From: Psammoneis japonica
Lineage: Eukaryota
Assembly: GCA_008632985.1 (NCBI GenBank)
Contig: QPGO01000107.1
Span: 298,929-318,928 of the forward strand
Length of the DNA: 20,000 nt
Direction of reading: 5' to 3'
Below are positions 1-18,555 of the stretch, in pieces. Each line of letters opens with the position of its first letter. Positions within the stretch are counted from its first letter, which is position 1. The notes beneath the pieces are model-generated. The model saw only the letters and a program-made list of their open reading frames with translations, did not search any database and had not been told where the DNA came from. Position numbers and translations under genes: made by a program.

Positions 1-2520
1 AAGACAGTGACTGTGCTTGCAACAATGTCTTTTTGAAAAGACTCTCCTGCAATCCTGCCCAAAAATTTGGACCTCCCAAACCAGTGCACGTGCACATGGA
101 TGAGAACAACATCAACACACTTGAGTTGGCCATTGTGGTGGCATGCAAAATTCCTGAAGAAGTTTTTGTTGTTGTTGATTTAGAAGAAAATCACAATGTG
201 ATGTGCTGCAACATTGACCCATCTGATGATGACCTCAAGCTGTGCATCATTGGACACAACTCTTAAAACAGCGCCACCATGGCAACATTTTTTGTCTGCA
301 CAATGATTTTGAAAGATTGTGTCCTCCTGATTCATGGATGACAAAAATTGCACCTCATGCAACAAAAACCACCAAGGAGGAATGGTCGACCCACATGAAA
401 TGACAGCCACTGGACAAACAAAAATCTGTTTTGGACCAATTGCACAAACATGAAACCAAGTGAAACAACATTGGTTTGCACACGTTTGTCATTGTCGTTG
501 CAACTTGTCTCAACAATTCTTGGAGAATCAACACAGGTTGGCCCATCCAGAATGACAAAAATGACTTGAACAACCCCACTCCATTGAGTCCAGATCACAC
601 CATCAATTGTCAACATCCAGATGACAATGTGCTCTGGAGCTGCAACTTCATTTTCAAGCTGCAGAACACACATCTCATTGTCATCATGAATGAAGTCATG
701 CCCCTCATTTGCACGAATGAAGTCATGCTGGCTTTTTTGATGGTGATGAACAAAACTCTCAGCACATGCTTGGAGAACTCTCTTTTGTTTTCTTGTGAGC
801 CTGTTTCCACCATGACAATGTGCCGCCAAAGCCATGACAACAACAAACCAACAAAACCACAACAAACTTCAAAATGGAAACAGTTGCACAATGCTTGCCA
901 ATGACTTCTTCCTCATGACCTTGTTGAATTGCACAGAACTTGACATGCAAGAGAGACCAGTCTTGCCAAACCAGAAAAAGATGTTCTTTTAAATGTCAGT
1001 TGTTGATGACATTGAAGAAAAACAACACAAATGCCTTGCCGAGATTTGTAAAAAAAAAAAAGCAAGTGAGCACTCATTGTCCCACACATCACCAAAGGAC
1101 ACAAAAGACAAAAAACCCATTCAATCCAATGTGTGTGCCACAGACACAAACAAATCAAAATGTGTTTGAACTGTCTGCACTTTGACATCATGCAAAGCCC
1201 ATTGGGATTTGTGTGAACACCTGCACAACCTGTGTGAGACCACAGAACAATCAGCGCCAAAATGACTGAAAAAAACCTTGACTCATTTCATCCAACCAGA
1301 TCACCAGGTTTGGAAAACAAAAGCAAATCAATGCCAGTCATCATGCCAGGCACGATGCTCAAATCCCAACAAAAGAGCAAATCTGTCATTTTACAAATGT
1401 GTTTGACAATGAAAAAATTTCATTTGGGTGTTCTTGCCGAGCCATTGCAGATGGTCACACAAAGCAGAAAGCTCCTGTGGAACAAGTGCTGCACGCGTGC
1501 CATTGTTGAAGGTCATTTGAAAACTGGTTCCCCTTTGGAAACCTTGATTTGAGCAACAGCTGGAAGCTGTTGCAGAGCCTGTGACAACAAAGAAAACTGC
1601 AACAAAAACAAGCAATTCTTGCAAATGCAAAATGGGTGAAGTGCACCTTGCATGCGCAAGCTTGCCAACTGTCATGCTGCACTCTCACTCTCTGCTGCAG
1701 TGCAGAGCAGGTGCCAGCAGAGGCTCTCTGCTCTAAAGCCAGCACATGGAGAGGCACTGATGGCACTGCTGCATCTCTTTGCATCTGACGTCCACTGCAA
1801 CTTTGACCAAGACAACCTCGCTGCTGCAGCATGTGCCCCCCCCCCCCCCCCCCCCACTTCAAGATGCCATCTGGTGGTGCTGCAGCACTTTTCTTCAACA
1901 CTTTGCTGCCCAGCCCCAACCCCTTCTGTTGTGAGAGCACTTCCACTGCACCGTGTCCCACAGTGTCAGCTGGCAGTGTTGGCCACCACACTCCATCTCT
2001 GCCAGTGCTGTCCCCCATTTCTGGTGTCACTCAGTTGGCTCACTCCACCAAATGCACAACCCCATGCCCTCAGCACCATGGGAGCAGGCAAGCCTCTCAC
2101 CCTCCCACCTCCTTCTGTGCACATGCTCTCTGGCATGAACAGGGGCCACTCTTCCCACCAGTCATCTCTGCATGCCTCCACTGGGTCCAACGACATTTTG
2201 GGCAAGCACAAGGCACTCCCCCCACCAAGTGGCATCTTGTCATGTGTGCGCTGCAGCCCTGCTGGGGGCTGCCAACAAGTCCCACGGTGCTGTCACAGTT
2301 TGGCAAAGCACCATGTTTTGCTGTGTGGGTGCTGCACCTGCTGGCCACACCCGCTGCTTGCTTCTTGTTGCTCTTTTTCGTGCATTTTCAAAAAAAATCA
2401 GCAGGTTCTTGTCAAGCACACAAAGGGAGCATGTCATCTGACAAACAGCATCATCCTCAGCAATCAGTGTCTTCCTCCAATCAGAGAAGAGGGCTCCCAA
2501 AGCTTTCATAGAATTTCATC
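1..2520. mobile_element. Hypermutated repeat/transposon-derived domain (CpG- and TpA-depleted), family unresolved
   Basis: CG and TA nearly absent, CA/TG in excess. ORFs are Cys/His-rich, Tyr-free and broken. Composition matches the identifiable TE relics at 6650-13560 and returns to normal at about 2520-2690. Confidence 0.6.
700..1490 (+). pseudogene. Possible degenerate Ulp1/peptidase C48-like domain relic (transposon-associated)
   Basis: Across frameshifts, motifs occur in C48 order: TNEVMLAF (~713-736, cf. NDEVINFY), DFFLMTLL (~905), AHWDL (His ~1200), LDSFH (~1280) and Q..AESSCG (~1459-1481). Motif recall only. Confidence 0.35.
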
Positions 2521-2707
2521 AGATGACTGAGTTTTCTCAAAGGAACTCTAGGACAATGAAGAAATGATCCCCACAGATTCTCGCTTTCAAATGACACTGT
2601 CAGTGAAACCTCACAATAGATTCTACATACATCTTCAGCAGCAGTTGCTGATGCTCATGAGTAATGACATTCATTTTAGTGCCGTTAGTCAAGTCAATCC
2701 ATTGAGG

Positions 2708-3088
2708 ATGCGACTTTTGTCGCCGCGTCGGTGTTGTGGCTGGGTTGCCATTGTGGCTTCGCGCTTTGTTTTGATTTTGTGTGATTGGACGTTCGCTTGT
2801 TTCCGCCTTCCCTTTCCTCCATTTATCTCGTTGAAATCGCCATCGATTCCCGGTGCGACTTGCGTCAAGAGAATCCTGCCGTCGACAACTGTTTCTCCTG
2901 CTTCATGGGTTGAAACCAAAGAAGACATCCTCCACGTAGATCCATTGACAAACAATGTTGTCCAGATTTCGATGGACAAGTGCAGAGCCAAGGAATTCAA
3001 AGGACGCGCCTCAAGCGAGACCACCGTTAGCCGCCGTGCTCTTTGTGACCTCGAAAAGGGGATTGCCAAGGCGGAAGGAAAATCGTGA
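2708..3088 (+). CDS. Possible short hypothetical protein or 3' remnant of a gene
   Basis: Open frame in normal-composition DNA ending ...LCDLEKGIAKAEGKS*, convergent with the lipase 3' end. No recognisable domain. Confidence 0.2.
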   Translation: MRLLSPRRCCGWVAIVASRFVLILCDWTFACFRLPFPPFISLKSPSIPGATCVKRILPSTTVSPASWVETKEDILHVDPLTNNVVQISMDKCRAKEFKGRASSETTVSRRALCDLEKGIAKAEGKS

Positions 3089-3228
3089 AAACCAAACTTA
3101 CACTTGCGATGCAAAGGCGCGAGTATTTCCAAAAACAGCTTTCAATGAGCCAGATGCAGATTGAAGAGACGAACTCAGACGTTTTGCAATGGGCGCAGGT
3201 ATAAACAATACACAGCGAAAGCCGCATT

Positions 3229-4468
3229 TTACCAATCGGAACAACATTCACACACTTCTCTCGCAACAGCCGCAAAGTATCCTCCCTTGCACTTGCCATC
3301 CATTCGGGGACATGCCAAACAATGCGCCGCTGCAAACTCTCTCAGCGACAACAAAGTCTTTTGTTCAATATCTTTTATTCGCAAGTCGTCCAACTCTCTT
3401 GTGACGTTGGCGGTTACGGAAATGTTACCATCGATGTATTTTCTCACTCCGACTGGTTGATAATCCCATATATATTCCTTGGCTTGAGATTTGGTCGTGT
3501 TGTCCCAAAGGACGCTGTTCAAACTCTGTGTGTAAGATCATGTTTCCGAGCAGAACACAACTCAAAACACACACCCAATCGACGACATTTACTCACCCAT
3601 CCATCATGTCGGTTGCTTCTTCGTCCATGGCATTCATCACCGCTTGAGACGGAGGCAAAAACGGGACTATATCCAAATAGTATTCGTACGAAGTTTGATT
3701 TACCTGTTTGTAAAAGGCCTTGGCAAATTTTGAATCTCCCGCCTTGGCCGAAGCAAACGTGACTACCTCCGTGACGTTGGGCAATTCCTCATCTTGATTT
3801 ACCAGCATGGCAGCAATACTCGCCATGGCTCCACCCTTGCTGTGGCCCGTCATGAAAATCTTTATGGTATTATTATTTGATTGCATGGCTTCCAAAATGT
3901 TGGACTTCATGGGTTTCCAAATGGATGTGACGGCCCGATAGAATCCCGAATGGAGTCTACCGGGCAAATTGGGAACGCGTTGCAATCGCAGCGCGGCATT
4001 TTGAAGCCAATCGAGTGGCGATACCGTCACTGTCCCACGAAAGGCCAATACTAGACCATCGCATGTTTCTCCCAGTAACACGGAATTGACACTCTTGGTG
4101 ATACGTATCGTGGTAGTTTCAGGTAAGTAACCGGCGGCTTCAAAGTACGGAGGAACTGGATTGTAGGCACATTGCGAGGCGCACAAGAGTCGGCCATCCA
4201 ACGTCTTGGCGACAATTGAGTCGTCGTCGTCCGCGATTTCCTCCTGCACCATGAGGTGTGTCTCTACAATGCCGGTAGCGCCGGTGTCATTGACTACATC
4301 ATCTACCCAAGTTTCGTTAGTGTTTAAAGACGACAACAATCGAGTTGGAAGAATGAATGGCGCTCTTCTAGTCGGAAGAATGCATGTCCTCCTCGATTTT
4401 TGTACACCGGAACATGTAAAAGCATCTGCTACAGCGACAACGGTTATAAAGTGGAATGCTCGAGTCAT
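3229..4468 (-). CDS. Class 3 lipase (Lipase_3, alpha/beta hydrolase), 2 exons: 4468-3597 and 3514-3229; probably plastid-targeted
   Basis: LAFRGT, LHSGFY, nucleophile elbow GHSKGG, catalytic Asp in DIVPFLPP and candidate His in AAAHCL. The 82-nt intron 3596-3515 (GTGAGT...AACAG) joins MMDG|VLWDN in frame. N-terminus is a signal peptide ending ADA-F followed by an Arg/Ser/Thr-rich transit-like segment. Confidence 0.9.
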
Positions 4469-4693: not shown

Positions 4694-5214
4694 CAGTCTG
4701 CTCGCGTTAACATATACTGGGGGTACATACGGTTTTTTAGTATATGTTATAGAGAGGGTATATTATGTTATTCCAGTCTCGTACAAAAGTACGTATATTT
4801 ACCACGTACGTAGAATAAGTACCAAGATTTACGTAGCTTGAAATCTTGCGCTTCTCCCTCACGACTCACGACGCTTTGGGGCCATGTTCGCGCGGCCACC
4901 ACTGTATTTTTTGAAAAAACTCATGACCTGCCTTCATCAATTCTTTGGTCCTGCTAGGTACAAGGAAGCCCAGGACCACTTCTTAGAGTTAAATAATGGT
5001 CAACAAGGGTGTCTACAGTTGTTGTAAGTGTAGTCTTAATGGTTTCATCGCCTCAAACTAGTCGTATCACGGATTCGCAAAATGGTCTGTCGGTCTGTCA
5101 GGCTGTCTGTTTACAGGAAAGTCTGACCTTCGTCCGAGGGGTCAGGCCGGATTTTTTAGTGTGCGTTATAGAGAGAGTATATGTTAAAAAGTGTGTGTTA
5201 GAGCGAGCAGACTG
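4694..5214. mobile_element. Tc1/mariner-type MITE (521 bp) with TA target duplication
   Basis: TA|CAGTCTGCTCGCgttaacatatac at the left end and gtgtgtgttagaGCGAGCAGACTG|TA at the right. 12-bp perfect TIR extending imperfectly to about 24 bp, TA at 4692-4693 and 5215-5216, no coding capacity. Confidence 0.85.
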
Positions 5215-5340
5215 TACTCTCTACTCTAGAGCTAGAGAGGGCCCCACTCTCTAGAGTAGAGAGTAGAGTAGAGAGAGAATGGTGGCAGCTGCTCTCTGCT
5301 CCCTAGAGAGAGAGACTGCAGCTGCTGCAGTCTCTAGCAT
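5215..5340. repeat. CTAG/AGAG low-complexity tract with a 17-bp perfect inverted repeat
   Basis: TACTCTCTACTCTAGAG (5215-5231) and CTCTAGAGTAGAGAGTA (5249-5265) are exact reverse complements with a 17-nt spacer. Confidence 0.8.
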
Positions 5341-6640
5341 GACAGTGCGCGAACATGTTGTGTTGTCTGCCTGCGGGTTGGGGCATCGTCAACAAAATGT
5401 TTCAACTGTCATTTTCAGCGACAAGTTGTTGGTTGTTGAACCCATCTTCACTGGGCTCATTCTCTCCCAGAGTCGAGTGGGTGAAAGGTTGCAAGCAGGA
5501 CCAAGTGGCTCTGGTGCCCCTGTGCTTTTTTGCCAAGCACTCCTGTCAACACCCATGCTGGTCATTTGGCTGGCCAGCTCCTCCATCAGCACCGTTGCAC
5601 TGTGTCCATTGTGTGACTCCCCTCCCTTGTTGCCAAGGATGTCTCTCTTTGTTGGACAGTGCAGTTGTTGATGGGTTGAAGATTGCTGTGTCCATTGCAT
5701 GTGGTGGCAACAGCTTGTCCTCTGCCAGACATGAGCACATTTGGGAGCACAGCAATTGGTCAGAGTTTGTTGTGGGCTTGATGGACTGGGGTGTGTGCGC
5801 TCTGCAAGCAAGAGATGTGTGTCTGTGGTCACACTGGCTTGTGACTTGTTGTCAACAGACAAGACTGTTTGTTGGCATGGCCCAGCCAGCCTGTGCTTCT
5901 GTGTTTCTTGTCAGCACCCAGCCAATGGAGAATGAACAGGGCTGTGCAGCCAAATGCTTGCATTGCAAACCATGGCAAAGGCCATTTCTCCAGGGGCTTT
6001 GAAAATGTTGTGACAAGTTGGGACAATGCCTCCTCCTCTTCATGGCTTTTTTCCTGCATTTTGGAAGCATGGTTTCATGGGCTGATGAGTTGTCTGTGGA
6101 GCTGCCTGCAAGGAGTCTGAGAGAGACAGAGCCCGCATTCAAAGAACTGCAGAGAGTGTGTGCAGAGAACATCCAAGCTGTGGAGCATGCATCAGACTGC
6201 TCATTTGCATGAATCTAGCATCCTTTGGTGGTGCCAAGAAGGAAACAAGCCTGCCAAAAAGTGGGAACTTTCTCATCCGGAAATCTTGGTGGGGCCCATG
6301 GGATGACACAACCACAGGCCAAAGTTCACAGACATGATGGCATTGAGTCTGAGAAATCTGCTGAGCAACAATGAAGCAGAGCTTGTGGCTGTGTGCAACA
6401 AGCTTCAAGAACATCAGGTCAAGGATCACAAGCAGAAGAACATCAATTGCACTCCACTGCCAAGGTCAGCAATTGGGTGGCCATGGTGTGGCCCTGTCTG
6501 AAAGAAAGTGTCAATGAGGCCAGAAGTGCCAAAATTCTGGCTGACCCTCATCCCAGTCCCTTCTGCCATGCTGGCTGTCAGTGCACTGGAGAAGTGTGGT
6601 GGGTCAGCATTTGCTGGCTTTTGCGGAAAAAAGCGCAGTG
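5340..6640. mobile_element. Unidentified hypermutated repeat fragment(s)
   Basis: Same CG/TA depletion. Coding-like plus-strand relics (WADELSVELPARSLRETEPAFKELQRV, NLLSNNEAELVAV). No Copia RNase H motifs recognised where they would be expected. Confidence 0.45.
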
Positions 6641-6649
6641 GTGCCCATG

Positions 6650-8090
6650 GACTGGACTTTTTTTGTGTCCTTGTTGTCAGCTTTGAATGCAGTCTGATTG
6701 TCAGGCCTGGCCCTCACCAGGGAGAGATGCAGCTGCTTGTGGTGGTGAAACATGCACAAGCTGGCCCACTTTGTTCTTGCTCAACAATGGCATCAAGGCA
6801 TCAATGGCAAAACAGGCTTTTTTTGGCAGGGTGTGCTGTGACACCCCTGACATTGCCTGGAACCCAATGGCCAATGGTGCACTGAAGAACACAGCCCTTC
6901 TTTGTGAATTTGACCCTGCCATCCCCAGAGAAATCAGTGGTCATTTGTGCAGCACTTTGCTCCAACATGCAGTGATGGGCACACTGTTTTCTACCTGCAC
7001 TTGTTGTTGAGGGCCATGGCAATGTCCAGTGGCACCCACCATTTGATGTGAAATGGTTTCATTTCATCAGCAACATGCCACATTGTGGCACAGTGCTTGC
7101 CACATTGATGGTCTTGTTGACCATGCACCAATCATGTGGGTTCCTTGACTTGAGTCCTGGGTCTCACCTGCACAGGAATGAGGGCAGATTCATCCAGAGG
7201 AGAAGAGCTCCTTGGAGGATTCCATGTGTGGTCACTTTTTCAGCTCCATGAACAACACAGGTTTTCCCTTCTCTCCATTGCCACACACTTGTGGCACTTC
7301 CTTGCATCAACCCAGTGGAGCAACTCAGCCAGTCTTGTGTGTGTCAACCAGCCCATGATGTCACTGTGCATGAATGCACCTTGCAAGTTGGTGCTCATTG
7401 CTTGGCATTGCTCCTGTGGATCAATTGCAGAAGACAGAAATGAGGTGTGGGATTGCTTCTGTCAGTGCAGAGATGTTTCCTCTTTGCTTTTGTGTGGTCG
7501 TTGTTTCTTCCTGTCAGTGCATCTCCTGCCCTTGATTGCGCTGTCGACGCGTTCCAGCCGTAGGTGGGACTCCGTGTGACATTGGGCCCGTAGAATTCTA
7601 CGTGCGAGCTCCGTAGTACGAGAATTTAATTAATGGATACATTTATCTTCAACATCAAATAAACCGCCAAGTTTGTGGTACAATAGTGCCTCTCACCACT
7701 CGACTTTTTTGCAAATACGCCTGCCCTACGCGATTCTTAAGACATTATAGAATCGCGCTGTAACAAAAAATGTCAAAAGTTGTTGGACGGATCGCTCAAT
7801 AAGTGTACTGTAAAATGACACAAAATATCGAAAAAATCACGTAGAAATCTACGTGCGCGACATACGACGTGATTCAAAAAACTGTCGATGTCACAGTTCA
7901 GTAGTACGAGGTCCCACCTCTAGTAGACCTGGAACACGTCTGTCTTGCCTCTGCTTGAGACACATGAAATGCCTTTGTGTGTTTTTCTTTTGCTCCCTTG
8001 TTGTGTCTTTGGCAAACACCAGCTGGACAACATTGCAGAAGGATGGCTGCTTCATTTGCTTGACCACAGCATCAGCTCTGGCTCTGCCAA
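6650..8090 (-). pseudogene. Copia reverse transcriptase relic, split by the MITE at 7546-7940
   Basis: AVVKQMKQ..TREQKKNTQRHFMCLKQRQD|SAIKGRRCTDRKKQRPHKSKEETS; SAIDPQE..TNLQGAFMHSD; HGILQGALLLW (cf. LYGxLQSALLFW); NPHDWCMVNKTIN.KHCATMWHVAD (cf. NPYDxCVANKxINGKQCTIxWHVDD); MTTDFSGDGRVKF; RARPDNQTA. Confidence 0.9.
7546..7940. mobile_element. Non-autonomous TIR element (395 bp MITE) with 4-bp TSD TGTC, inserted in the Copia RT
   Basis: TGTC|GACGCGTTCCAG..AGGTGGGAC..TGTGACA at the left and TGTCACA..GTCCCACCT..CTGGAACACGTC|TGTC at the right. Removing it restores the RT frame (CAA GAC AGC GCA ATC AAG GGC). A 5-bp CTGTC reading is possible but makes the ends asymmetric. Confidence 0.88.
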
Positions 8091-8909
8091 GCCAACATCC
8101 ACTTGGCAAGGAAAAGTGCCCCCCACCGGGCCTTCAAAGTGTTGGATGATTGGGCGCAGCAGCCAGCCCAGCTCATGATTGCATCTGTGGCTGCAGCCCT
8201 TCTCCTTGCAAGCTTGAAGGTTGCACACCTGGCGCTCCTCTTTCCACATCAGCACCTGTGGTCTGCCAGTGCCACCATCATTGTCTTCCTCTTTGTCACA
8301 GTCACAACCAGAGTTGGGGCCACACTCCACTTGGAGGGCAGGTGCTTGGTCATCCCAGTTTGCCCCCATGACTTCAATTTTCATTGCTCATGTCTTTGGT
8401 CTGTCCCAACTGAGCTTGTCTGGGAATGAGTTCCAGCACCTGGTCTGAGTCAGTGCTGCCCACATCCGCTCCTGCATTTTCTGCTGGTTTGGTCTGTCAC
8501 TCCCCACTCTGGCTTCTTGAGCAGCTTCTTCCACTCCAGTCATTGCACTGGGGCACAGAGTGTTTTCTGTTGAGGGGTCTTCCACTCTTGCTGTTGGCAC
8601 CTCTCTCCAGCAAGTCTCCCACTCATGTGGTTGCCTTGGCTGTGGGCGACACATCTGCTCCACCAGCCAGTGCATCAGATCTCCATTGGAAGCCATTGTT
8701 GGTGGGTGCACTCCTGTGACCCAAGTGTGTCTGGACAAGGGTTGGGTCTGAAATCAGCATCATCTGAGGGATCAGATGAGCAGCCACCATTGTCAAGGAG
8801 GAGTTGTCAGCAGAGTTGTCATTGTTGGGGTCACAGCTTGTGCTCTCATTGTGCACAGAGTTGGGGTGGTGGGGAAGTCAATGTCCACATCTGTCAGCAA
8901 AGGCAAGGG

Positions 8910-9460
8910 TTCAGCACATGTCTTGGCTGGCCCTGAGTTTGTCAACATGGTGAACAACATCAGACAGCATGGGCATGGCTGTCCAGTGGTTTTTGCAAAT
9001 GACATCATGCTTGTTGCCAGTGGTGAGAAACATGAAATGGTGCCCCCCTTGTCCATTTCCTGCAAGTCTGAGGCAGACAGCACTGGTGGTTGTTGGGTGC
9101 ACAGTGTTGTTGCACTCTTCATGGACCTGAGCACAGCTGCCAAACTCAAGGGTTGTGCATGTTTTTGACTGTCAATGTGCTGACCAGTGGTGACACAGCT
9201 CCCTGGTTGTGCTGCCAGGGTTCAGGAGCAGTGCATTGAGCCAGGAAGTGGAGCTGCAGACCAAATGAATGAGGATCATTTGCAAGGTTTGCTTGAAGGG
9301 AAGGGAGCTGAAGCCACTGTGCCTCCTGTCCTTGACTGTTCAGATGCGTTGCTCAACATCTGCCATGTGCACTCATCCTGTGAGTGTGCAGGTTGAATGC
9401 TGCATTTGGCATGAGGTCCTCAAGGGCCTGGAATTCTGGGTCAGCATGAATGGTTGCTGT
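8910..9460 (-). pseudogene. Copia integrase core and C-terminal relic
   Basis: TIHADPEFQALEDLMPNAAFN..QDE..MADVEQRI*TVKDR..SSLPFK..LIHLVCSSTSWLNAL; LEFGSCAQVHEE; TSAVCLRLAGNGQGGHHFMFLTTG..HWTAMPM. Confidence 0.9.
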
Positions 9461-9478
9461 CAGGGTTTGTCAGTGCCA

Positions 9479-9890
9479 ACACCTGAGGACCATGTGACCT
9501 TCTTGAGCATGGCAGCTGCAGCACTGCCCCTGCTGTGTGGTGGCACATGCACTGAGCTTGCTGCTCTTGTTGCCACCACCACATCCTTTTGGGCTTGTTG
9601 TGCTGCTCAATGTCCTGCACTTTGTCTGGCTCCTCTGTTGCACTGGTTGACAGCGACCCTTTCAGTTGTGAAGGCTGGCTCAGTTTTGTCACTGTGAGTG
9701 CCACCATTGTGGTGCTCAGGTGGCACACAGTTGAGGGTGCAGCTGCAGCAGGTTCCTCTGCAGACTTTGGGCCATTGTCCAAACCCCTTGAGCACTTGCT
9801 TCAATGTCTGCCACAAGGTTCCCACATCAATTGTGGTTGCTGTTGAGGAGGGGAAAACACCCCCAACAGATTGACTTTGTCCCCTCACAG
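9479..9890 (-). pseudogene. Copia gag C-terminal relic with CCHC zinc knuckle
   Basis: LLNSNHN*CGNLVADIE (cf. LLNSDxxRYGxLVxDIEN); LKGFGQWPK..LNCVPP; knuckle-like QCCSCHAQEGHMVLRC at about 9526-9479. Confidence 0.75.
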
Positions 9891-10119
9891 ATCAGTCACA
9901 AAATGGGAATCCCGGACTCAGCATGGGTTCCATGTTGTTTGCAGGACTCCCCCCCCCCCCCCCAGTGGCCAGAGCTGGCATTGGGCAAAAGATTTAAAAG
10001 TTCACTTCAGCTGCAGCATGCTGCATCAATCCTCTTGCTGTCTCTCCCACCAGCATTTAATTTGCTGTGTTGTGTTGTTTGCTTCATCATTGACTGTGTC
10101 AAGTGTGGGTGGTGATGAG

Positions 10120-11107
10120 GTTTCTGAGCCAGTGCTGAAGTGCAAGAGAATCAAAAATGTCTTTGAGCTTGACCCTTGGATCAACCCTGATGCAGGCAAG
10201 AGTGTCTTCACTGACAATGAGTTGGACAGTGCACTCTCCAAAATTGCACACAATGAGTGGTGTGGTGCATTCCTGCACAAGGAGACAAACTGTTTTGGAG
10301 ATTCAAGAGGTGGGTGCCAAGGAAACTGAAGATTGGACAACAACAAGTGGCACGTTGTCCATTTCAATGTCAAAGCAAGTGCAACTGCCATGTGGAGATT
10401 GTTCAAAACCATCCAAACAACAACCAAATTTCCAAAGGATTGGTGCCTCATGCTGACTGCAATGTGTCTTTCTACAAGAGCCAACTGGCAAAACAAGTCT
10501 TGCAAGTCTTTGGCTTGCCATGGCATGCTGAGTTGCATCTGAGTCAATTGCTTCAAAAGGGCCTTGGACAGAATTTGAATCTTGACAAGGGTGCACAGAG
10601 GAAAGCCCAGAGGATGCTTTCAAAACAAGCCAAGCAAGTGTTGAGGTTGTGCCCCACCAATGGAGAGAGTGGAGTGGGGTGGGGATGCATTGTGGATGCC
10701 CTTGAGAGATGCAAGCATGACTCCATGAGTCCTGACGCATTCAACAAGCACACAACATGGGTGCTTTTGTGGTGACAAGCATTTTTGTGACAGCAACGCA
10801 GAGCAACTGTGTTGTGCTTTTTCTGCAGAGAATCTGCTGCTGAAAAGATGTTGTCAACTTGCGCCAGGGCAGAATTTCTTTGCTGTCAACACATTGCACC
10901 CACAAAAAGGCTGGTTTAATGCCAATCAAGGTTGTCAGTTTTAAACGAGATGGCCACATTGTTGCATGTGGTGTTGCATCAAATGAAGATGAGGAAACAT
11001 GCAAAATCATCTTTCAGAGCATCAAGAAGGCTGTGAAAGATGTTGTTGGTAGATGTGTTGCTTGTGGGGATCAGCATGCTTGGGATGCAGTGGAGAGAGC
11101 AAAGTGA
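10120..11107 (+). pseudogene. Mutator/MULE-like transposase N-terminal relic
   Basis: RCPFQCQSKCNCHVEI..PHAD (WRKY-like zinc finger); CFSAENLLL; GLMPIKVVSFKRDGHIVACGVASNEDEETCKIIFQSIKKAV resembles the MULE domain segment after the first catalytic Asp (VAYxxxSxExxExY). Confidence 0.6.
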
Positions 11108-11130
11108 CAGTGGAATTTAAATGCTTGTCA

Positions 11131-11311
11131 ACACAATGCAACACAGTGCAATGCAGTGAAATGTGGTGCAACATGCTCTGGCCACCACCAGCTGGTTTAC
11201 ACTCAATTTTGCAATGAAATCATGAGTTGATCATTTGATCTTGGAAATTGATTGTAAAGAAAATGTTGTGCAATGCCATGCAATGCAGCACAACACATGC
11301 AATGCAACACA
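11131..11311. repeat. Degenerate pentamer microsatellites (11131-11175 and 11268-11311)
   Basis: Units acaca atgca acaca gtgca atgca gtgaa atgtg gtgca acatg, and gtgca atgcc atgca atgca gcaca ... Confidence 0.7.
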
Positions 11312-11364
11312 GAAACAGCTCATTGACTTGCATTCAATTTTGCACTCCAATCACAAATCTTTCA

Positions 11365-11868
11365 TTTGGGCTTCATGAGTCAATCATCAGGGCTCCTCCA
11401 TGCTTTGCAGTCTTGGGACAACTGAAAAACTCAATGTCATTTCTCAGTGCTTTGCCATGGCACATGAATGGCAGTGCTGTGCATGATGCTGGCAATCTTG
11501 CATGTGCCAGACATGAACCTGTGTTGATGCCTCATTCCAAAAGCTCTTTTGTTGGCATTGCTTGCAGCCCTTTGTGTGTGAGCATTGTGTGAAGCTCTTT
11601 TGTTGTGACTCAAGTCATGTCATCTGATGGTTGGATCAACCTCACAATGTGGAATGTCTTGATTCAATCCACAGCCATTTCACAACTCATGTCACACTCA
11701 GTGATGGCTTTTTCAGGGTTCAGGAGCAGCGTCTTTGTCTTGTGTTGATGCAGCCATCAATTTGTTGCAAGGCCTTTTTTGCATGCATCAATGTCATCTG
11801 CATTGATGCCAAGGGCAACAAGGTCATTCTCATGAAATGCTGCCCCCAACAATGTGTGGCCCTTGCAG
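11365..11868 (-). pseudogene. Possible SWIM zinc-finger (MULE C-terminal) relic; second copy at 12497-12948
   Basis: IKTFHIVRLI followed by SCLAHAR..MHSTAIH, resembling a decayed CxC-xn-CxH SWIM motif, ending KHGGALMIDS*. Confidence 0.4.
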
Positions 11869-11870
11869 CA

Positions 11871-12986
11871 GCAGCCATTCCAAGATGCCCACGGCCCTGT
11901 GGATTTGCTTCAAGGGTCACACATTGTTGGGGGCAGCACTGCATGAATGATCTTGTTGTTGACCTTGGCGTTGATGCAGACCAACCCCAATGCAGGCAAG
12001 AGTGTCTTCACTGACAATGAGTTGGGCAATGCACTCTCCAAAATTGCACACAATGAGTGGTGGTGTGTTCCTGCACAAGGAAACAAAGTGTTTTGGAAGT
12101 TCAAGAGGGGTGGGATCCAAGGAAGCTGAAGGGTGGACAACAACAAGTGGCGTGTTGTCCATTTCAGTGTCAAAGCAAGAGCAACTGCCACATGGAGATT
12201 GTTCAAAACCATCCAAACAAGAATCAAATTTTCAAAGGATTGATGCCTCATGCTGACCACAATGTGTCTTCTTTCTACAATGGCCAACTGGCAAAACAAG
12301 TCTTGCAAGTCTTTGGCTTGCCATGGCATGCTCAGTTGCATCTGAGTCAATTGTTTCAGAAGGGCCTTGGACAGAATCTGAATCTTGACAAAGGTGCACA
12401 GAGAAAAGCCCAGAGGATGCTTTCAAAACAAGCCAAGCAAGTGTTGAGGTTGCACCTCACCAACAGAGAGAGTGGAGTGGGGTGGGGATGCATTGTGGAC
12501 AACAGGAAAACTCAATGTCATTTCTCAGTGCTTTGCCATGTGGCACATGAATGGCAGTGCCGTGCATGATGCTGGCAATCTTGCATGTGCAAGACAAGAG
12601 ACCTGTGTTGATGCCTCATTTTCCAACAGCTCTTCTGTTGGCATTGCTTGCAGCCCATTGTGTGCAAGCATTGTGTGAAGCTCTTTTGTTGTGACTCAAG
12701 TCATGTCATCTGATGAAGGGATCAGCCTCACAATGTGGAATGTTTTGATCAAATCCACAGCCATTTCACAACTCATGTTGAACCCAGTGATGGCATTTTT
12801 AGGGTTCTGGAGCAGTGTCTTGTGTTGGTGCAGCCGTCAATTTGTTGCAAGACATTTTTTGCACACATCAAGAATGTCACCTGCATCAATGCCAAGGTCA
12901 ACAAGATCATTCATGCAGTGCCACCCCCAACAATGTGCGACCCTTGCAGTGCATCCACAGGGCCACGGGCATCTTGGAATGGCTGC
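11871..12986. repeat. Local segmental duplications: 11982-12499 matches 10182-10696; 12497-12948 matches 11416-11868; 11871-11979 is an inverted copy of 12881-12986
   Basis: Alignment by eye, e.g. ATGCAGGCAAGAGTGTCTTCACTGACAATGAGTTGG and AAAACTCAATGTCATTTCTCAGTGCTTTGCCATG each occur twice. Confidence 0.92.
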
Positions 12987-13109
12987 TGAAAAGAAAAAAG
13001 CGGCCCTCTTGTCAAATTGATGTGGAGTGAAATTTCATTGGTGGTTTTGCCAGCTGAAGCAGTTGAAAAAAATCCCAGAAAACAGAGTCCTAAAATGAGG
13101 AGTTGGTGC

Positions 13110-13560
13110 CTGTTGAGGAGGGGCACACCCGAGCACTTGTTCTGGATGGTGGTCTCTGCCTTGGCCTGTTCTTTTGCCAATGGGGCATCAGCACCCACAT
13201 CTGACTCTTGCAGAAAGGCACTGACCTGCTTGGGGTGCATGCCAATCTGGCCTGTCATGCACTCCATGATGCCCATGAGTTCTCTTGCATTGTCACAGCA
13301 ATCTGCACTGGACATGTGGAGGGTTTGATGGAAGGTGAGTGGTGCATGTTCAGTGTCAATGATCATGTGCATGGGGGGAGGGACTTCTCCTGGTCTGCTT
13401 CTGCATCATGCAGTTTTGGATCAGCTCAAGTCAGCCAATGATGCTGGCATTGCCGTTGACATCTCTCCAGTCGCTCCTTGTGTGCTTCCATCCAGTTTCT
13501 GAGAGGTCAGGTGCTGGACAAGTGTTGGGGTGAAGACTCCACCCAAAACTTGTGATGTGA
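13110..13560 (-). pseudogene. Copia gag N-terminal/middle relic
   Basis: LRNWMEAHK..WRDVNGNASIIG*LELIQNCMMQKQTRR; EHAPLTFHQTLHMSSADCCDNARELMGIMECMTGQIGMHPKQV..AKAETTIQNKCSGVPLLN. Resembles diatom Copia gag with Tyr replaced by His/Cys. Confidence 0.75.
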
Positions 13561-14006
13561 TTGGCCTTGCTGGACGTAGGAACTAGTGCTGTTGATCTCC
13601 AAGAGCATTGAAAAATGACCCTCTTTGGATGGTTTAGCTGCTAAATATTTGCTCATTCATGACAAAGATGCAATTTGTGTTCAACGATGTGTCTTGTAGA
13701 CATTATTTTGAAACGAAGCATTGCTATCAAAACTACGAAGAGCCGTCTGTCTAGAGCACGGAAGAGCTCGTTGGTTTGAGCCGACAGATTCTTTGCTTCC
13801 CTCGTCCCCTGAAACGCACTGCAATGAATTCTCCGAGACACCCAGTATCGCATGAAAGAGACTAGAGGGTTCCTTTCCATCGTGGTTCTCGTGCGAGCGC
13901 CAAGACGATTGATCGTTCACAGTTCACACAAGACGTTGCAGGTGTCATGATTATCAGTGTGCATGAATGGACGAATATGGTGTTCATCACGATGAAAACA
14001 TCTGAA

Positions 14007-15322
14007 TCACTCCAGTTCAGGGATGTCCAAATCAATGCTTCCTTCTCGCATGTCGGCGTTGAGGTACATGACAGCCTCGGAAACCGCAGATCGGCCATGA
14101 ATCATTTGTTCGCACTTGGCCATGGCCAAAATATCAATCAATACTTCCTTGTTGGTTCTATGGTGTGATGCTAAATCGAAGGTTGGAGTCTCGTCCTTGG
14201 ATCGAAGGGCAGTCCCCTGCGTTCTACTTGCTTCATGACTTCCTCCGGCCACTTCTTCTTCATTGTCTTTAGGGTGGATTCGGAGTCCGTTGCGAGATAA
14301 ATAATGTTACCATTGGAGGCAGTGTAGACACCCTTTCTTCGTCTAATGCCAAGATACTTTAACGCATAAGGCAGGTAGTCACGCAGTTCGATCTCAGACC
14401 TCCCGCCGCTGAGCTCCTTGTCCGTTGTTCTGACATGCATTGCAAGGCATTGCTGTCCATCGCGCAATGGGTTGGCTTGTTCAACAGCCTCTAAAACCCA
14501 AGGTTTGGGATGAAAGTATCGTCGAACAACGGTGGCAGCACGCCGTCTCATGGGTCGATACCACTGTTCGAGTGACATGGAATTCCGCTCCTCTTCTGAA
14601 ATTTCTTTGTAGGGCCATGCCATGACACCCCAATCAATCTGAGAGTGCAAACCTGTAGCAACCTGCTCGATATCAAGCTCATAAAGAGGCTTGCTCTTGT
14701 CTTTACAAATCATGTTTCGTGCCGGTGAAAAGGCCGACACTGGTTCAAAGTAGGATTCCCATACCCCGTTCCCCTCCACAACCTCCTCCTCTAGCATTGC
14801 TCTCCGGACTTGTCTGCTTTTAAACAAGGGCGCAGGTTCGGGATCAAGCGGTACATAATCTTCTCCACTTGGAATTTCTCCCTTTAACGTTTCAAAGGTA
14901 CGTGTCGGTCCAGTGCCATGAACGTCAGGGTCGTAGATGCGATGAGACGTGTCATCCAAGTGTATCCACGGCAGGAGGTTGTGTTTTTCTGCATAAAGCA
15001 AATGGTTGACCATGTAGATGAAAAAGACTGTACCAAATGCAGCTCCCTCATCTCCCGATCGAATACGAAGGACTCCATCGTATCCACGGCAAATATCATC
15101 CTCTTTGTTGTCGTACGGCTGCGATGTTGATTTGTTCTGCGTTCGTCGTGAATTAACGGTAGTGTCAACAACAAACGTGTCTTGTCGTTGTTGTACGGAA
15201 CGAATGGAGCGCTCCGCCTCCAATAAAAGTAAACAAGCAATGAGTAGAATCGCTGCAAAGGTCAATTGAAGACGTCTCGAGTGCTGACGTTTCATGTTAG
15301 ACGGATCGTTGTGGGCGGTCAT
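14007..15322 (-). CDS. Fucosyltransferase-like glycosyltransferase (GT23/NodZ/FUT8-type motifs), type II membrane; one apparent 1-nt deletion near 14225
   Basis: Signal anchor LQLTFAAILLIACLLLL; motif I AMHVRTTDK; motif II IYLATDS; motif III LIDILAMAKCEQMIHGRSAVS lies in the shifted frame (ORF 14007-14252). First ATG at 15322. Confidence 0.8.
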
Positions 15323-15557
15323 CGCGACGAGCAAACCGAAGGGAGGGCACTGAATGAATTTGGTGCTTGACGCAATTTTTGGAATTTCATGATATCTTCA
15401 TTCGTATATACCTCATATTTGTATGTATTGTTCAAGCATGGATGTTAATTATTTTTATACTGTCTTCTTTTTCTCGCGTCGTACGTACGTCGTGCAACGT
15501 GCAAAAAAAAAAAACCTTCGATGCACATAGCATTGCGCAGAGCACGACACCATCACC
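15323..15557. promoter_or_regulatory. Short divergent intergenic region (probable bidirectional promoter)
   Basis: 235 bp, AT-richer, between head-to-head starts at 15322 (-) and 15558 (+). Confidence 0.5.
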
Positions 15558-16217
15558 ATGAGCTTATCGTTTGTTTCATCGGCAGTACTGTCGTCTTCGG
15601 ACGGCATTTCGCACAATGAGGAACGTCAAATTGAAAGCAAAGAAGTCCAGGCGCTCCGGGGAAAGCAGACAGCCGCGAAGCCTCTCTTTGATCAATTGCG
15701 CAAAAACCAAGAGGAAGAAGAAGCAGAGCGTGAAGAATTTCAGCGCAGCATTATGCGAGGGACCTTGGCGCTGGACGAGGAAGACTGTGCTCATTTAGAT
15801 AGCTTGCAAAAACAACGTCAAGAACGAGAAGCCATGGTCAAGGCTGACACAGAACAGGAACTCGCATTATTTCGTGCGGCACGAGCAGATCGAATGGAAA
15901 GTCAAGTGGTGCTGCTGTCACAGCAAGACGAAGAAACAAAGGAGCCTGCCGTTCCCGATAAAAGCCAGCAAGTCAAATCGAAACCAAAGACAATAGCTCC
16001 CGTGATTAAAGTCAAGAGACGACTACGTCCGCCGTCAGACAAGGATGCGGATGAGAGTAAAGTAGAAAGCAAGACAAAAAAGCAAAAACAGGAAACCAAG
16101 GAGACAAGCAATACAACCGGCACTAGTAAAAGCGACAACGCCGATGAAACAAAGGAGGAAAACGGCCTAGGAGGCTTGTTGGGTGGCTATGGATCCTCAG
16201 ATGACGAAAGTGATTGA
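15558..16217 (+). CDS. PSME3IP1: FAM192A/PSME3-interacting protein (NIP30/Fyv6 family)
   Basis: N-terminal FVSS, LFDQLRKNQEEEEAEREEF..LALDEEDCAHLDSL..ELALFR, a Lys-rich region and the C-terminal GGLLGGYGSSDDESD. Intact 219 aa. Confidence 0.85.
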   Translation: MSLSFVSSAVLSSSDGISHNEERQIESKEVQALRGKQTAAKPLFDQLRKNQEEEEAEREEFQRSIMRGTLALDEEDCAHLDSLQKQRQEREAMVKADTEQELALFRAARADRMESQVVLLSQQDEETKEPAVPDKSQQVKSKPKTIAPVIKVKRRLRPPSDKDADESKVESKTKKQKQETKETSNTTGTSKSDNADETKEENGLGGLLGGYGSSDDESD

Positions 16218-16867
16218 GAAGATGCTTTAGCAGAGCGCATCCAAGCGTTGATGCTCCCATACGAACATCACATCGCTGACGGGATATCAAGTACGATAGT
16301 CGTTCTAGAACCCTTCACGTAATCTTGAATCGCACTATTTTGATCTGATGTTGTCTTCCATAGCTACAGCTTCAACTCGTGGCGAGATTGATTGTCAATG
16401 GTTTTCGCACATCGCTTCTTCATTGCTTTAGATGCGAGCTAGCAATTCGTTTCTTCTAAACCCCTTTGCTTTTCCTTACATACTGTGGTGGCGGTGCTCG
16501 ATTTAACCTTGATGTTCGAGAAGGAGCGAGCAGGATTTCGATTGGATAGCCCTAGCTAGAGTGAGTGAATGATCCTCCCTATCTATTACTAATAACTGTA
16601 CTATTATGCGTGTCAAACTTTCCGAGCTCGCTGTGCAGGAACAAGATTCCAGAACCCGGAAAAACTGCCTGCGCCGGGTTGGTCGTACGAATGACCAACT
16701 AACTCGAGAAGTGAAGTTTCAAGTTGATGTGCACTTCACTTTGGTTGAATGACATCAGTGTTGATCAGCGTTGAACGTTCGCACAAAAAATCTTCAACCA
16801 AATCCCTCACAAAGATACAACAAAACGACTCTGAAGTTTTCCTACCGAAAACTACATCTTCACCACC

Positions 16868-18555
16868 ATGAGCACCGAAGAAGAAACGAACCAAACCCCC
16901 GAAGAAGTCGCTGAAGCGAAGGAGAAGGATCTTCAGGCCAAGATGAAGCTCGTCGAAGATGCCATCACGTCGCTTTGCAAAGAAGACTCTGAATTTGCGG
17001 ATCTTCGAGAAATTGGCGCTGCCCTCAACGCAGGAGACTCTCTCCAAATCAAAAGCTTGGCCGGTGGCCTCACCAACTACAGCTACAAGGTCTCTCTCGC
17101 ATCTGGAAAGAAAGATCTTTTTTCCAAGATTTGTAAGTTGGATCTTTCGGTGTCCTTGTTGCAAAAGGTCTCGCCATTGCTGGAACAATCGAATTGCTCT
17201 CGAATCATAAAAAGGGTTCTTATTGTCGTTTGTGAGTGCGTACAGTGTATGTAGTATTCACTTTTTCTCATGACACTTTTATTGCGTGGCTGTACAGGCT
17301 TTGAGTATGCACTTTGGAACCCCGATCGAAGCGTCAAGTACGATCTCAGTCGCGTCGAAAACGAGTTCCAGATGATGAAGGACGTCTCAAGCTTTGAACC
17401 TTCTCCAGTTGTAGCTCCTTATCATTGCGTCGACGTCACGGATGACGATGGTAACAAGATGAAGCTTCTTGTTTCTGGCTTGGGCGACATGCGACGAACA
17501 GATTGTGAATCAGTTTATTGACGGCGAAGTGGACCCTCGCATCATGAAGAGGCTTGCAACCGTCTTGGGTACCATCACTGCAAAGACAGACCACGACAAG
17601 AGCTTCAATGAGGATTGTCGTCCGTGCTTTCAAAGCTTGCTCCCGGCAATGCCCATGGTCGTGGAGACCTACTTGGCGGAGCCTCCGACGGACAAATTCC
17701 GTGAGATGTGCCATGAACTCGGTTTGGACCACTTCAAGTTAGTGATGGAAAACTTTGAAAAGAATTATCTGACGCAAGACGTTCTGTGCCACGGCGATCC
17801 GAATGTCTTTAACATCCTTGTGGAACCGAAACCTAGCATTCAGTCTCTTGAACAGTTTGGCCCGGACGGCGACATGGTGCTCTGCGATTGGGAAATGGCC
17901 TTTGTTGGACCTCGTGGAAAGGACGCTGGTTGGTTCCAGGGATTTCCCTTGGCGGCGATCTTTGCTCATGCCGCTCACGGACGTCGAGAGGACGTGGCTG
18001 AAAGATCTTTGAGAACTTGGAGATTTTTTGGGAAGAGTATGAAAAGACCTTGAGAGAGAACGGAAAAGACGACGAATTTGTCCAACAGACATACGTTGGA
18101 CCATTGGTTGGATTGGATGGATCTTGGCGGCCTACAGTCTGATGGGCTTTCACATGAATTACCTGCCGGTTGACGATATTCCAGAAGAAGACAAAGCCAA
18201 GGTGCTGGCCTCGATCGGATACACCGGATACAAACTCTTGGATCTCGTATTCTCGGAAGGCTGCCCGGCTGAAAAGATGTCCCTTGCCGAGCTCAAAAAG
18301 CTGTACAAGGACCTTGTCATGAGTGAAGTTAAGGAGTTGTCCATGGTTGGAGCGAAGCGTCGGGCACGTCCTCGTCGGGCTTCTGTTTTGCGTACCTCGG
18401 GACGTCGTGTCTCGGATGCCGGAGTCTACGAAACTGTCGCTCGACGTGTGTCTCAGGCAATCGTTGCGGGAAGCTTTACTGGAATTGACCAGTTTATGGA
18501 TGATGAATTGCATGGTCTTGGAATAGCCTTGACTGAGGAAGTAGAAGAGGAGTAG
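16868..18555 (+). CDS. APH/choline-kinase-fold phosphotransferase, methylthioribose-kinase-like; intron 17133-17297; three apparent 1-nt indels (~17472, ~18003, ~18100)
   Basis: GGLTNYSYKV, LFSKI|CFEYALWN across a GTAAGT...TACAG intron, Brenner-like CHGDPNVFNILV, and LCDWEMAFVGPRGKDAG. Confidence 0.8.

Follow-up and report, generated by a model that had tools for sequence, protein, structure and literature searches.

Loss of TpA together with CpG from a transposon relic of a diatom-like alga, and a candidate adenine hypermutation of mobile elements

Deamination of methylated cytosines can strip CpG from an old transposon, but what could strip it of TpA as well? The question is raised by a 20,000-nucleotide (nt) stretch of Psammoneis japonica DNA (contig QPGO01000107.1, positions 298,929 to 318,928, forward strand; hereafter the window), in which the decayed body of a Ty1/Copia retrotransposon lacks nearly all TA and most CG dinucleotides. 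A first-pass annotation of the window had attributed the loss of CpG to decay of 5-methylcytosine (5mC), and had proposed that a second process, limited to the affected domains, converts A:T to G:C at TpA. We find that TpA was erased from another, unrelated element in which CG is intact, and that the survivors in both elements follow one context rule. The answer that we favour, with moderate confidence, is ordinary CpG decay combined with a separate, element-restricted and TpA-specific A:T>G:C hypermutation, most likely deamination of adenine in DNA.

Loss of TpA and CpG from a Copia relic

We mapped every TA and CG of the window and calculated observed/expected (o/e) ratios of dinucleotides in sliding windows. 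Three sharply edged domains poor in both were found, at 1-2508 (domain A), ~5336-7539 (domain B) and 7938-13575 (domain C). The depletion that had been annotated at 5340..13570 is therefore real, but its extent was drawn too narrowly, a further depleted domain lying at 1-2508. The pooled depleted set (1-2508, 5475-7498 and 7938-13575; 10,170 nt) held 20 TA (o/e 0.03) and 53 CG (0.09), compared to the ~350 and ~580 expected from the frequencies of the normal flanks (8,617 nt), which contain 298 TA (0.49) and 493 CG (1.05). CA and TG numbered 1165 (1.91) and 1267 (1.92) in the depleted set, vs 610 (1.16) and 649 (1.19) in the flanks. Since the summed frequency of pyrimidine-purine dinucleotides was unchanged (0.246 in depleted vs 0.238 in normal DNA), TA and CG were turned into CA and TG by transitions. 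AA (o/e 1.25 vs 1.23) and the remaining dinucleotides were not depleted. The longest TA-free gap of the window spans 2071 nt (7924-9995, with zero TA at 7925-9994); the same interval holds 9 CG, one at 7937 and 8 beyond it, in agreement with an earlier count of no TA and about 8 CG at 7926-9994.

This erasure is not a genome-wide bias, as adjoining introns and spacers are normal. The intron at 17133-17297, beside the relic, contains 9 TA and 7 CG, and across this intron, the gap at 3515-3596 and eight untranscribed spacers the TA o/e ranged from 0.31 to 1.33 (0.43-1.33 in the spacers alone), with CG mostly near 1. The flanking genes and two miniature inverted-repeat transposable elements (MITEs) had been described as rich in both dinucleotides, and the counts agree: besides the flanks, normal composition was seen at 7540-7937 (29 TA, 28 CG) and at 4762-5196 (32 TA, o/e 0.94; 21 CG, 1.02). 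RNA-like contigs of run X2 display the GT..AG intron, of 165 nt (joint 17132>17298), in a kinase-like gene, and a second gap of 82 nt (3515-3596) that splits a contig covering the lipase region in two. This transcriptome-like run covered only genes; its lack of cover in the depleted bins says nothing on expression. The best named relatives of the flanking lipase are diatom transcriptomes, at <=70% identity.

The depleted sequence was reproduced in contigs assembled independently (k=31) from run X1, with a word depth of ~59. These contigs matched 1838-4224, 6158-7545, 7940-9963 and 12908-18099 with 2, 2, 5 and 14 other letters, respectively, and single contigs spanned the boundaries between depleted and normal DNA. 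Because assembly at k=31 and a depth of ~59 requires accurate reads, it is very unlikely that the pattern stems from noisy long reads in which modified bases were miscalled.

Homology identifies the core substrate as a Copia relic, as had been claimed; it is of Ty1/Copia type and lies on the minus strand, with the order integrase then RVT_2. A phmmer search with the minus-strand frame at 9432-8602 retrieved 1013 proteins at E<=0.001 (best E 1.9e-28), and among eight long homologues RVT_2 scored above the Pfam cut-off in four and below it in a fifth, with zf-CCHC in one. In tblastn searches of the window, homologue P0121 matched at 9369-7945 (amino acids (aa) 732-1166; E 1.7e-37), 7536-7306 (aa 1170-1248) and 7226-6810 (aa 1274-1407), while aa 619-853 of P0139 matched at 9522-8806. 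As aa 732-1407 of P0121 are colinear with 9369-6810 of the minus strand, domain B belongs with the left part of domain C to a single relic. Its C-terminal integrase region, up to the start of the reverse transcriptase (RT), lies at 7941..9522 (minus strand; no TA, 8 CG), and its 3' part at 5336..7545 (minus strand), where the RT region (7536-6810) is followed by an unrecognisable tail to ~5336; 2 TA remain in 5336-7539. Identity to relatives is ~30-37%. The relic itself matched no Pfam family, either with six frames of the domains, stops as X, at E<0.01, or with domain B and the left of domain C at E<10. A flanking pair of long terminal repeats (LTRs) was found neither by blastn nor by a purine/pyrimidine-collapsed self-comparison, the relic being too decayed or truncated. 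When 163 long open reading frames (ORFs) from the 80 related loci described below served as tblastn probes, matches were confined to 6685-9450.

The transitions are legible in the encoded residues. Tyr makes up 0.0% of the relic vs 3.2% of the family, and at the 819 aligned pairs in which a homologue has Tyr (173 high-scoring segment pairs, 150 homologues) the relic reads Cys in 26%, His in 26%, Phe in 12% and Tyr in 0%. This generalises the Tyr to His or Cys replacements that had been read from single motifs, which are present as quoted on the minus strand within the Copia-homologous region: NPHD at 7131-7142 (NPYD in P0121), FGSCAQ at 9127-9144 and GGHHF at 9034-9048. Among 119 conserved columns 70 residues were kept; both conserved Tyr were altered (TGT, CAC), as were all but 4 of the 13 conserved Arg, which now read CAA, CAC, CAT, TGA, TGC, AAA, AAG (twice) and ACA. 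The suggested conversion of Arg CGA to CAA or TGA is thus real in the form Arg to CAN or TGN, found at 5 of these 13 positions. The family is not inherently Tyr-free, since 146 of the 150 homologues contain Tyr (median 2.7%). Four homologues are Tyr-free, and in two of these, P0133 and P0216, positions of conserved Tyr are occupied by Cys or His. P0216 kept 0 of 5 conserved Tyr (3 His, 2 Cys) and 11 of 15 Arg and, judged from its protein, is probably a third erased case. The other two, P0237 and P0257, were set aside as further cases, their divergence from relatives being too great to judge. Tyr-free 'hypothetical proteins' rich in Cys and His in public sets may mark further erased relics.

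TpA erasure separated from CpG loss in a second element

Metagenome contigs were scanned with an alignment of 8 sequences (A2), a 24-sequence alignment (A1) being too divergent for the purpose, and 80 loci were obtained; the same scan of viral_contigs gave 40 pattern matches, of which 0 were confirmed. One locus, L001, belongs to another Copia lineage and encodes P0133. Its TA content is normal up to ~1780, and its segment 2088-5892 (3.8 kb) holds 5 TA, with CG at 11-24 per 300 nt. TA was kept in its sister L002, which shares 86% DNA identity over 3387 nt, and with L004 as outgroup a three-way alignment of 2189 columns allowed the changes to be polarised. Of 35 ancestral TA in L001, 18 had become TG, 12 CA and 3 CG, and 2 were kept (94% lost). 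Ancestral CG, by comparison, was kept at 35 of 45 sites and most other dinucleotides at 76-94%; the value for AT, 61%, largely reflects overlap with TA (TAT, ATA). The L001 lineage accumulated 159 changes (55 A>G, 44 T>C), vs 83 (12 A>G, 14 T>C) on the L002 lineage. Since TA was lost with CG intact, TpA erasure exists without CpG erasure. L001 thereby separates directly the two processes that had been proposed from the window, where both losses coincide, and the second of them, removal of TpA by A:T>G:C change, is supported.

We next consider the 128 sites of the erased zone of L001 at which L002 has TA. These now read TG (59), CA (50), CG (9), TA (6) or other (4), so that 118 of the 122 changed sites are transitions. 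Both strands were used equally (TG 59 vs CA 50, binomial p = 0.44) and the outcome at one site was independent of that at its neighbours (runs-test z = 1.14). Sequence context mattered: with C 5' of the TA, TG exceeded CA by 23 to 6, vs 36 to 44 otherwise (Fisher p 0.002), and CTAG was retained at 3 of 10 sites vs 3 of 118 elsewhere (p 0.006). When each TA site was treated as a contest of its two adenines (Bradley-Terry), the weights for the base 3' of TA were 0.45 for T, 0.32 for C, 0.16 for A and 0.075 for G. For the 20 surviving TAs of the window, the pooled 3' neighbours were A 22, G 10, C 8 and T 0, vs 169, 163, 238 and 190, respectively, in normal DNA (Fisher p 6e-6). The survivors of the window therefore obey the context rule of L001, and two unrelated elements bear one signature. 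On the L001 lineage CA>CG and TG>CG were also mildly raised (6/111 and 13/117, vs 3/111 and 7/110 on the L002 lineage); these changes, like the 9 TA sites that ended as CG, hint at a weak activity at CpA/TpG.

Erasure appears to be discrete. L001 contains two long stretches devoid of TA (1821 and 1465 nt), and none of the other 79 loci has one above 444 nt, so that the state looks all-or-none per copy, within a set of loci that is not an unbiased sample. The 229-bp LTR of L001 (1569-1797, recognised by homology to the LTR pair of L006) kept 13 of its 19 TA, and erasure begins at ~1785. Decay of CG only was seen in L054, L056 and L066 (CG o/e of 0.13-0.18 in the lowest 1-kb window, with TA at ~0.5). 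All four combinations thus occur: TA loss only in L001, CG loss only in these three loci, both in the window, and neither in most loci. A 504-aa ORF flanking L001 matched no Pfam family, and its atlas matches scored 0.82 or less, below the range that is informative. The ends of the L002 contig (1-77 and 5426-5502) overlap by 77 nt at 100% identity, so that this Copia element, which looks intact, was assembled as a circle; a tandem copy, a circle with one LTR or an effect of assembly could each account for this.

Action in place, spared insertions and domain edges

The right part of domain C (9523..13575), repeat material without recognised family, contains an internal direct duplication (10179-11894 vs 11979-12968; 88-95% identity, with a gap of ~720 nt in the second copy) that bears on when the changes occurred. 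Its halves differ at 61 transitions and 23 transversions over 977 aligned sites. Among 20 adjacent double differences 11 were TG<->CA, every other type being a singleton; TG of copy 1 faced CA of copy 2 in 9 cases and the reverse held in 2. Such discordances imply that an ancestral TA or CG was resolved separately in each half after duplication, and hence that the process acted on DNA in place. We estimate that about one quarter of the derived CA/TG (~22 of ~85 sites) postdate the duplication. An inverted repeat (11869-11979 vs 12881-12988) is part of the same element. A gag-like match at 13377-13481 (minus strand) is weak (E 0.004-0.016), and the plus-strand frame at 10150-11418 gave 478 candidates in a word-based homology search, none at E<=0.01.

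A MITE of 395 bp occupies 7546..7940, with terminal inverted repeats GACGCGTTCCAG / CTGGAACACGTC and further inverted repeats nested inside them; it is flanked by a target-site duplication, TGTC (7542-7545 and 7941-7944). The Copia alignment halts at aa 1166 (7945) and restarts at aa 1170 (7536), which places the MITE inside the RT frame. It is young and present in high copy number, its summed X1 depth being 122,677 vs ~59 (about 2000 times single copy), and it is unmutated though embedded in the erased relic. The description of the process as domain-limited accordingly holds in that it is confined to repeats, but the restriction is to elements rather than domains, since this MITE is untouched and the LTR of L001 keeps most of its TA. 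Run X3 gave only short contigs of 47-154 nt, on 7597-7919 only, and the MITE may thus give rise to small RNAs.

The second putative MITE, a moderately repeated insertion (4762..5196; X1 bin depth 472 vs ~59), adjoins the left edge of domain B. One X1 contig omits 433 nt here (4762-5196) and has 17 other letters instead, possibly an empty-site allele or insertion polymorphism. Between this insertion and domain B lies a palindromic piece of CTCTAGAG type (5197..5335) with 10 TA and 1 CG. Five of these TAs lie in CTAG, three in GTAG, one in CTAC and one in GTAC, mostly the context that resisted erasure in L001. The edges of the two erasures disagree at 5197-5474: 5197-5335 retains TA, as just described, and 5336-5474 has 0 TA and 6 CG. 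The right edge of domain C is sharp, with CG at 13575 and TA at 13577. Domain A (1..2508), a repeat relic without recognised family that is cut by the window start, holds 7 TA and 22 CG, with CA/TG o/e of 1.6-2.6. A six-frame Pfam search of it gave no match, and its X1 depth (~115-125) corresponds to roughly two copies at >=85% likeness.

Proposed mechanism, rival explanations and known systems

We propose that two transition processes were overlaid on old transposon copies. In the first, CpG would decay to TpG/CpA as a result of CG methylation, which diatom transposable elements (TEs) presumably carry. The second, far faster, would convert TpA to TpG or CpA on DNA in place, almost purely by A:T>G:C change. 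It would use both strands with equal likelihood, treat each site independently and run to near saturation (~95% of TA lost), favouring 5'-TA with a pyrimidine on its 3' side and mostly sparing the A of 5'-TAG, so that CTAG survives, with weak off-target action at CpA/TpG. Its reach would be limited to long TE bodies, sparing genes, introns, spacers, the 395-bp MITE and the 229-bp LTR of L001. At the chemical level, adenine in 5'-TA would be deaminated to hypoxanthine and copied as G at the next replication, by a deaminase recruited to TE copies through a logic like that of repeat-induced point mutation (RIP) or of AID; length, transcription, small RNAs and duplication are candidate targeting signals. 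A TadA-like DNA adenine deaminase and a modified A/T base had both been put forward as candidates; of the two we favour deamination, and the 5'-T-A-pyrimidine context is reminiscent of TadA/ADAT sites. More tentatively, a natural DNA adenine mutator may exist in diatom-like algae and in one or more further microbial eukaryotes, as a 5'-TAY deaminase that is aimed at full-length transposons and inactivates them by turning each TpA into TpG or CpA; we consider this broader claim less likely than not.

Several points weigh against this proposal. TpA is palindromic, so that sequence cannot separate adenine deamination from mutagenic thymine modification. The window offers no ancestor for polarisation, and its loss of TA is deduced from the internal duplicate and from protein homologues of ~30-37% identity. 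Comparison of the duplicated halves suggests in turn that most erasure preceded the duplication and that the history had more than one episode. L001 is known from a metagenome contig, and its spared LTR could reflect biology (dependence on length or transcription), later gene conversion between LTRs, or a chimeric metagenome assembly. The 80 loci were chosen by likeness to the erased protein and provide no measure of how frequent erasure is. Finally, run X1 possibly derives from the source sample of the window, and the platforms of X1 and of the window assembly are not on record. This last point would suit an artefact, whether long-read miscalls of modified bases or chimeric assembly. However, X1 reproduces the depleted domains through their boundaries into normal DNA, the same signature occurs in L001, a short-read-style metagenome assembly, the L001 protein recurs in two further assemblies (P0271, P0272), and the residue changes are coherent at the protein level. 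We give an artefact the lowest probability of any explanation considered.

The modification of a base, rather than its deamination, is a rival that we consider unlikely without dismissing it. Here the T of TpA would be oxidised or hypermodified in silenced TEs (TET/JBP-type 5-hydroxymethyluracil or 5-formyluracil), or the A would be N6-methylated on both strands of the palindrome, and mispairing of the modified base at replication would lead to T>C or A>G changes. Mispairing with G is a property of 5-formyluracil, and base J occurs at T before A in trypanosome telomeres. A self-complementary target altered equally on both strands fits a symmetric mark such as CG methylation, and restriction to elements would follow from heterochromatin marking. 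However, a mark of a chromatin domain should reach the embedded MITE, which is unaffected (perhaps merely because it is too young), and near-complete, apparently discrete erasure at 14% total divergence of L001 demands a very high mutagenic yield. Editing during retrotransposition, by an ADAR-like enzyme on RNA or a deaminase on cDNA, would let a copy integrate pre-mutated; the clearest cases are indeed LTR retrotransposons, and erasure looks all-or-none per copy, as from one hyperedited template. Yet editing of RNA or minus-strand cDNA is asymmetric, in contrast to the near-equal TG and CA of L001 and the equal Tyr>Cys and Tyr>His of the relic. ADAR favours 3' G, the worst context here, and accepts 5' A as well as 5' U, whereas AA is not depleted. 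Both LTRs are rebuilt from RNA, yet the L001 LTR retains 13/19 TA; the TG<->CA discordances in the duplication point to action after integration; and the erasure extends equally to depleted parts without recognisable Copia homology. Editing of RNA or cDNA is thus hard to reconcile with the symmetry of the strands, the LTR that was spared and the post-duplication changes, and we rate it as highly improbable.

Two further explanations dispense with a dedicated TpA mutator, and each strikes us as a shade less probable again than retrotransposition editing. In the first, TpA would be lost as a by-product of the repair of deaminated 5mC, methylated DNA undergoing repeated error-prone patch repair by a Pol eta-like enzyme (WA>WG), a candidate raised in the first-pass annotation, or over-active T:G correction. 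The losses of TA and CG in the window do occupy the same domains, with nearly the same edges, but TA was lost from L001 with CG intact. At A, Pol eta makes many transversions, and it mutates A in AA as well as in TA; here only 4 of 122 changed TA sites were other than simple transitions, and AA is not depleted. These observations disfavour the Pol eta candidate, and the resistance of CTAG is the opposite of what over-correction by very short patch (VSP) repair produces. The second invokes neutral decay or selection without targeting, through a general context-dependent bias or an element that avoids TA and CG. TA is moderately under-represented genome-wide (flank o/e 0.49) and the window relic is old, to judge by its identity to relatives. 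Against this, TA and CG are normal in introns and spacers next to the relic, L001 lost 94% of TA while retaining 76-94% of most other dinucleotides, and 79 of 80 related loci lack a long TA-free run. The destruction of conserved Tyr and Arg and the broken frames exclude selection for function.

Anti-transposon hypermutation is, to our knowledge, known only as cytosine deamination, by RIP in fungi and AID/APOBEC in animals. Adenine deamination of TEs would therefore be a second chemistry for transposon defence, in algae that rank among the major marine primary producers; it would represent the first natural genomic-DNA adenine deaminase and an independently evolved analogue of RIP. An enzyme of this kind, a natural 5'-TAY DNA adenine deaminase, would have direct relevance to base editing. 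Erasure would account for diatom TE relics that annotation fails to recognise (no Pfam match survives here) and would skew TE ages estimated by divergence. By removing TAA and TAG stops it would also leave long open frames that are called as proteins, hence the presence of P0133 and P0216 in databases. Any genome can readily be screened for the signature, namely a TA o/e close to 0, a doubling of CA/TG and the survival of CTAG. In the open literature, with subscription journals outside the scope of the search, no description of TpA erasure or of A>G hypermutation of repeats was found, in keeping with the first-pass statement that no such system was known. The matched passages of PMC2806351, bioRxiv 10.1101/2025.10.24.684338 and PMC12543289 do not mention TpA erasure; the last of these, from 2025, surveyed RIP across 1,239 fungal genomes, with 16 oomycete/stramenopile outgroups.

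How does the pattern compare with known systems? Decay of 5mC at CpG explains the CG to TG/CA half of it (CG o/e 0.09; Arg to CAA, CAC, CAT, TGA and TGC), and L054, L056 and L066 offer a parallel, but it cannot remove TpA, which was erased from L001 while 35/45 ancestral CG were kept. VSP repair of E. coli likewise turns TA in a defined context into CA/TG, through a bias of T:G-directed repair. Over-correction by that system depletes CTAG; in our case CTAG was the most resistant context (3/10 vs 3/118 retained), and the effect is limited to TEs. AID/APOBEC mutation and ADAR hyperediting resemble it as deamination against mobile elements that leaves clustered transitions in integrated copies. 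Those systems are strand-asymmetric and APOBEC alters C, in contrast to the symmetric (TG 59 vs CA 50), post-integration changes described here, with 3' G disfavoured (weight 0.075, the lowest) and AA undepleted. TadA/ADAT enzymes, which are tRNA adenosine deaminases, and adenine base editors engineered from TadA/ADAT convert A to I (read as G) after U/T and before a pyrimidine, a preference close to the order TAT >= TAC > TAA > TAG found here. TadA natively acts at U-A-C, and YAC was favoured by early adenine base editors. The natural substrates of TadA/ADAT, however, are tRNA anticodon loops, and we know of no natural member of the family that mutates genomic DNA. RIP of ascomycete fungi provides the closest parallel in form: it is transition-only, dinucleotide-specific, confined to repeats, active on both strands, near saturation and frame-breaking, with sharp element edges and escape of short repeats. 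Sharp edges are seen in the present elements too, and the sparing of the 395-bp MITE and of the 229-bp LTR may be a counterpart to that escape. RIP takes place before meiosis and depends on homologues of the cytosine methyltransferases RID/DIM-2. RIP, however, changes C:G to T:A at CpA, making TpA and lowering CpA/TpG, in a fungus; in the diatom-like alga TpA is destroyed (TA o/e 0.03), CpA and TpG are the products (o/e 1.9; 30 of 35 polarised TA in L001 became TG or CA), and A (or T) is the base changed. By analogy, then, the logic would be that of a RIP-like defence, with a chemistry and direction that are the reverse of RIP.

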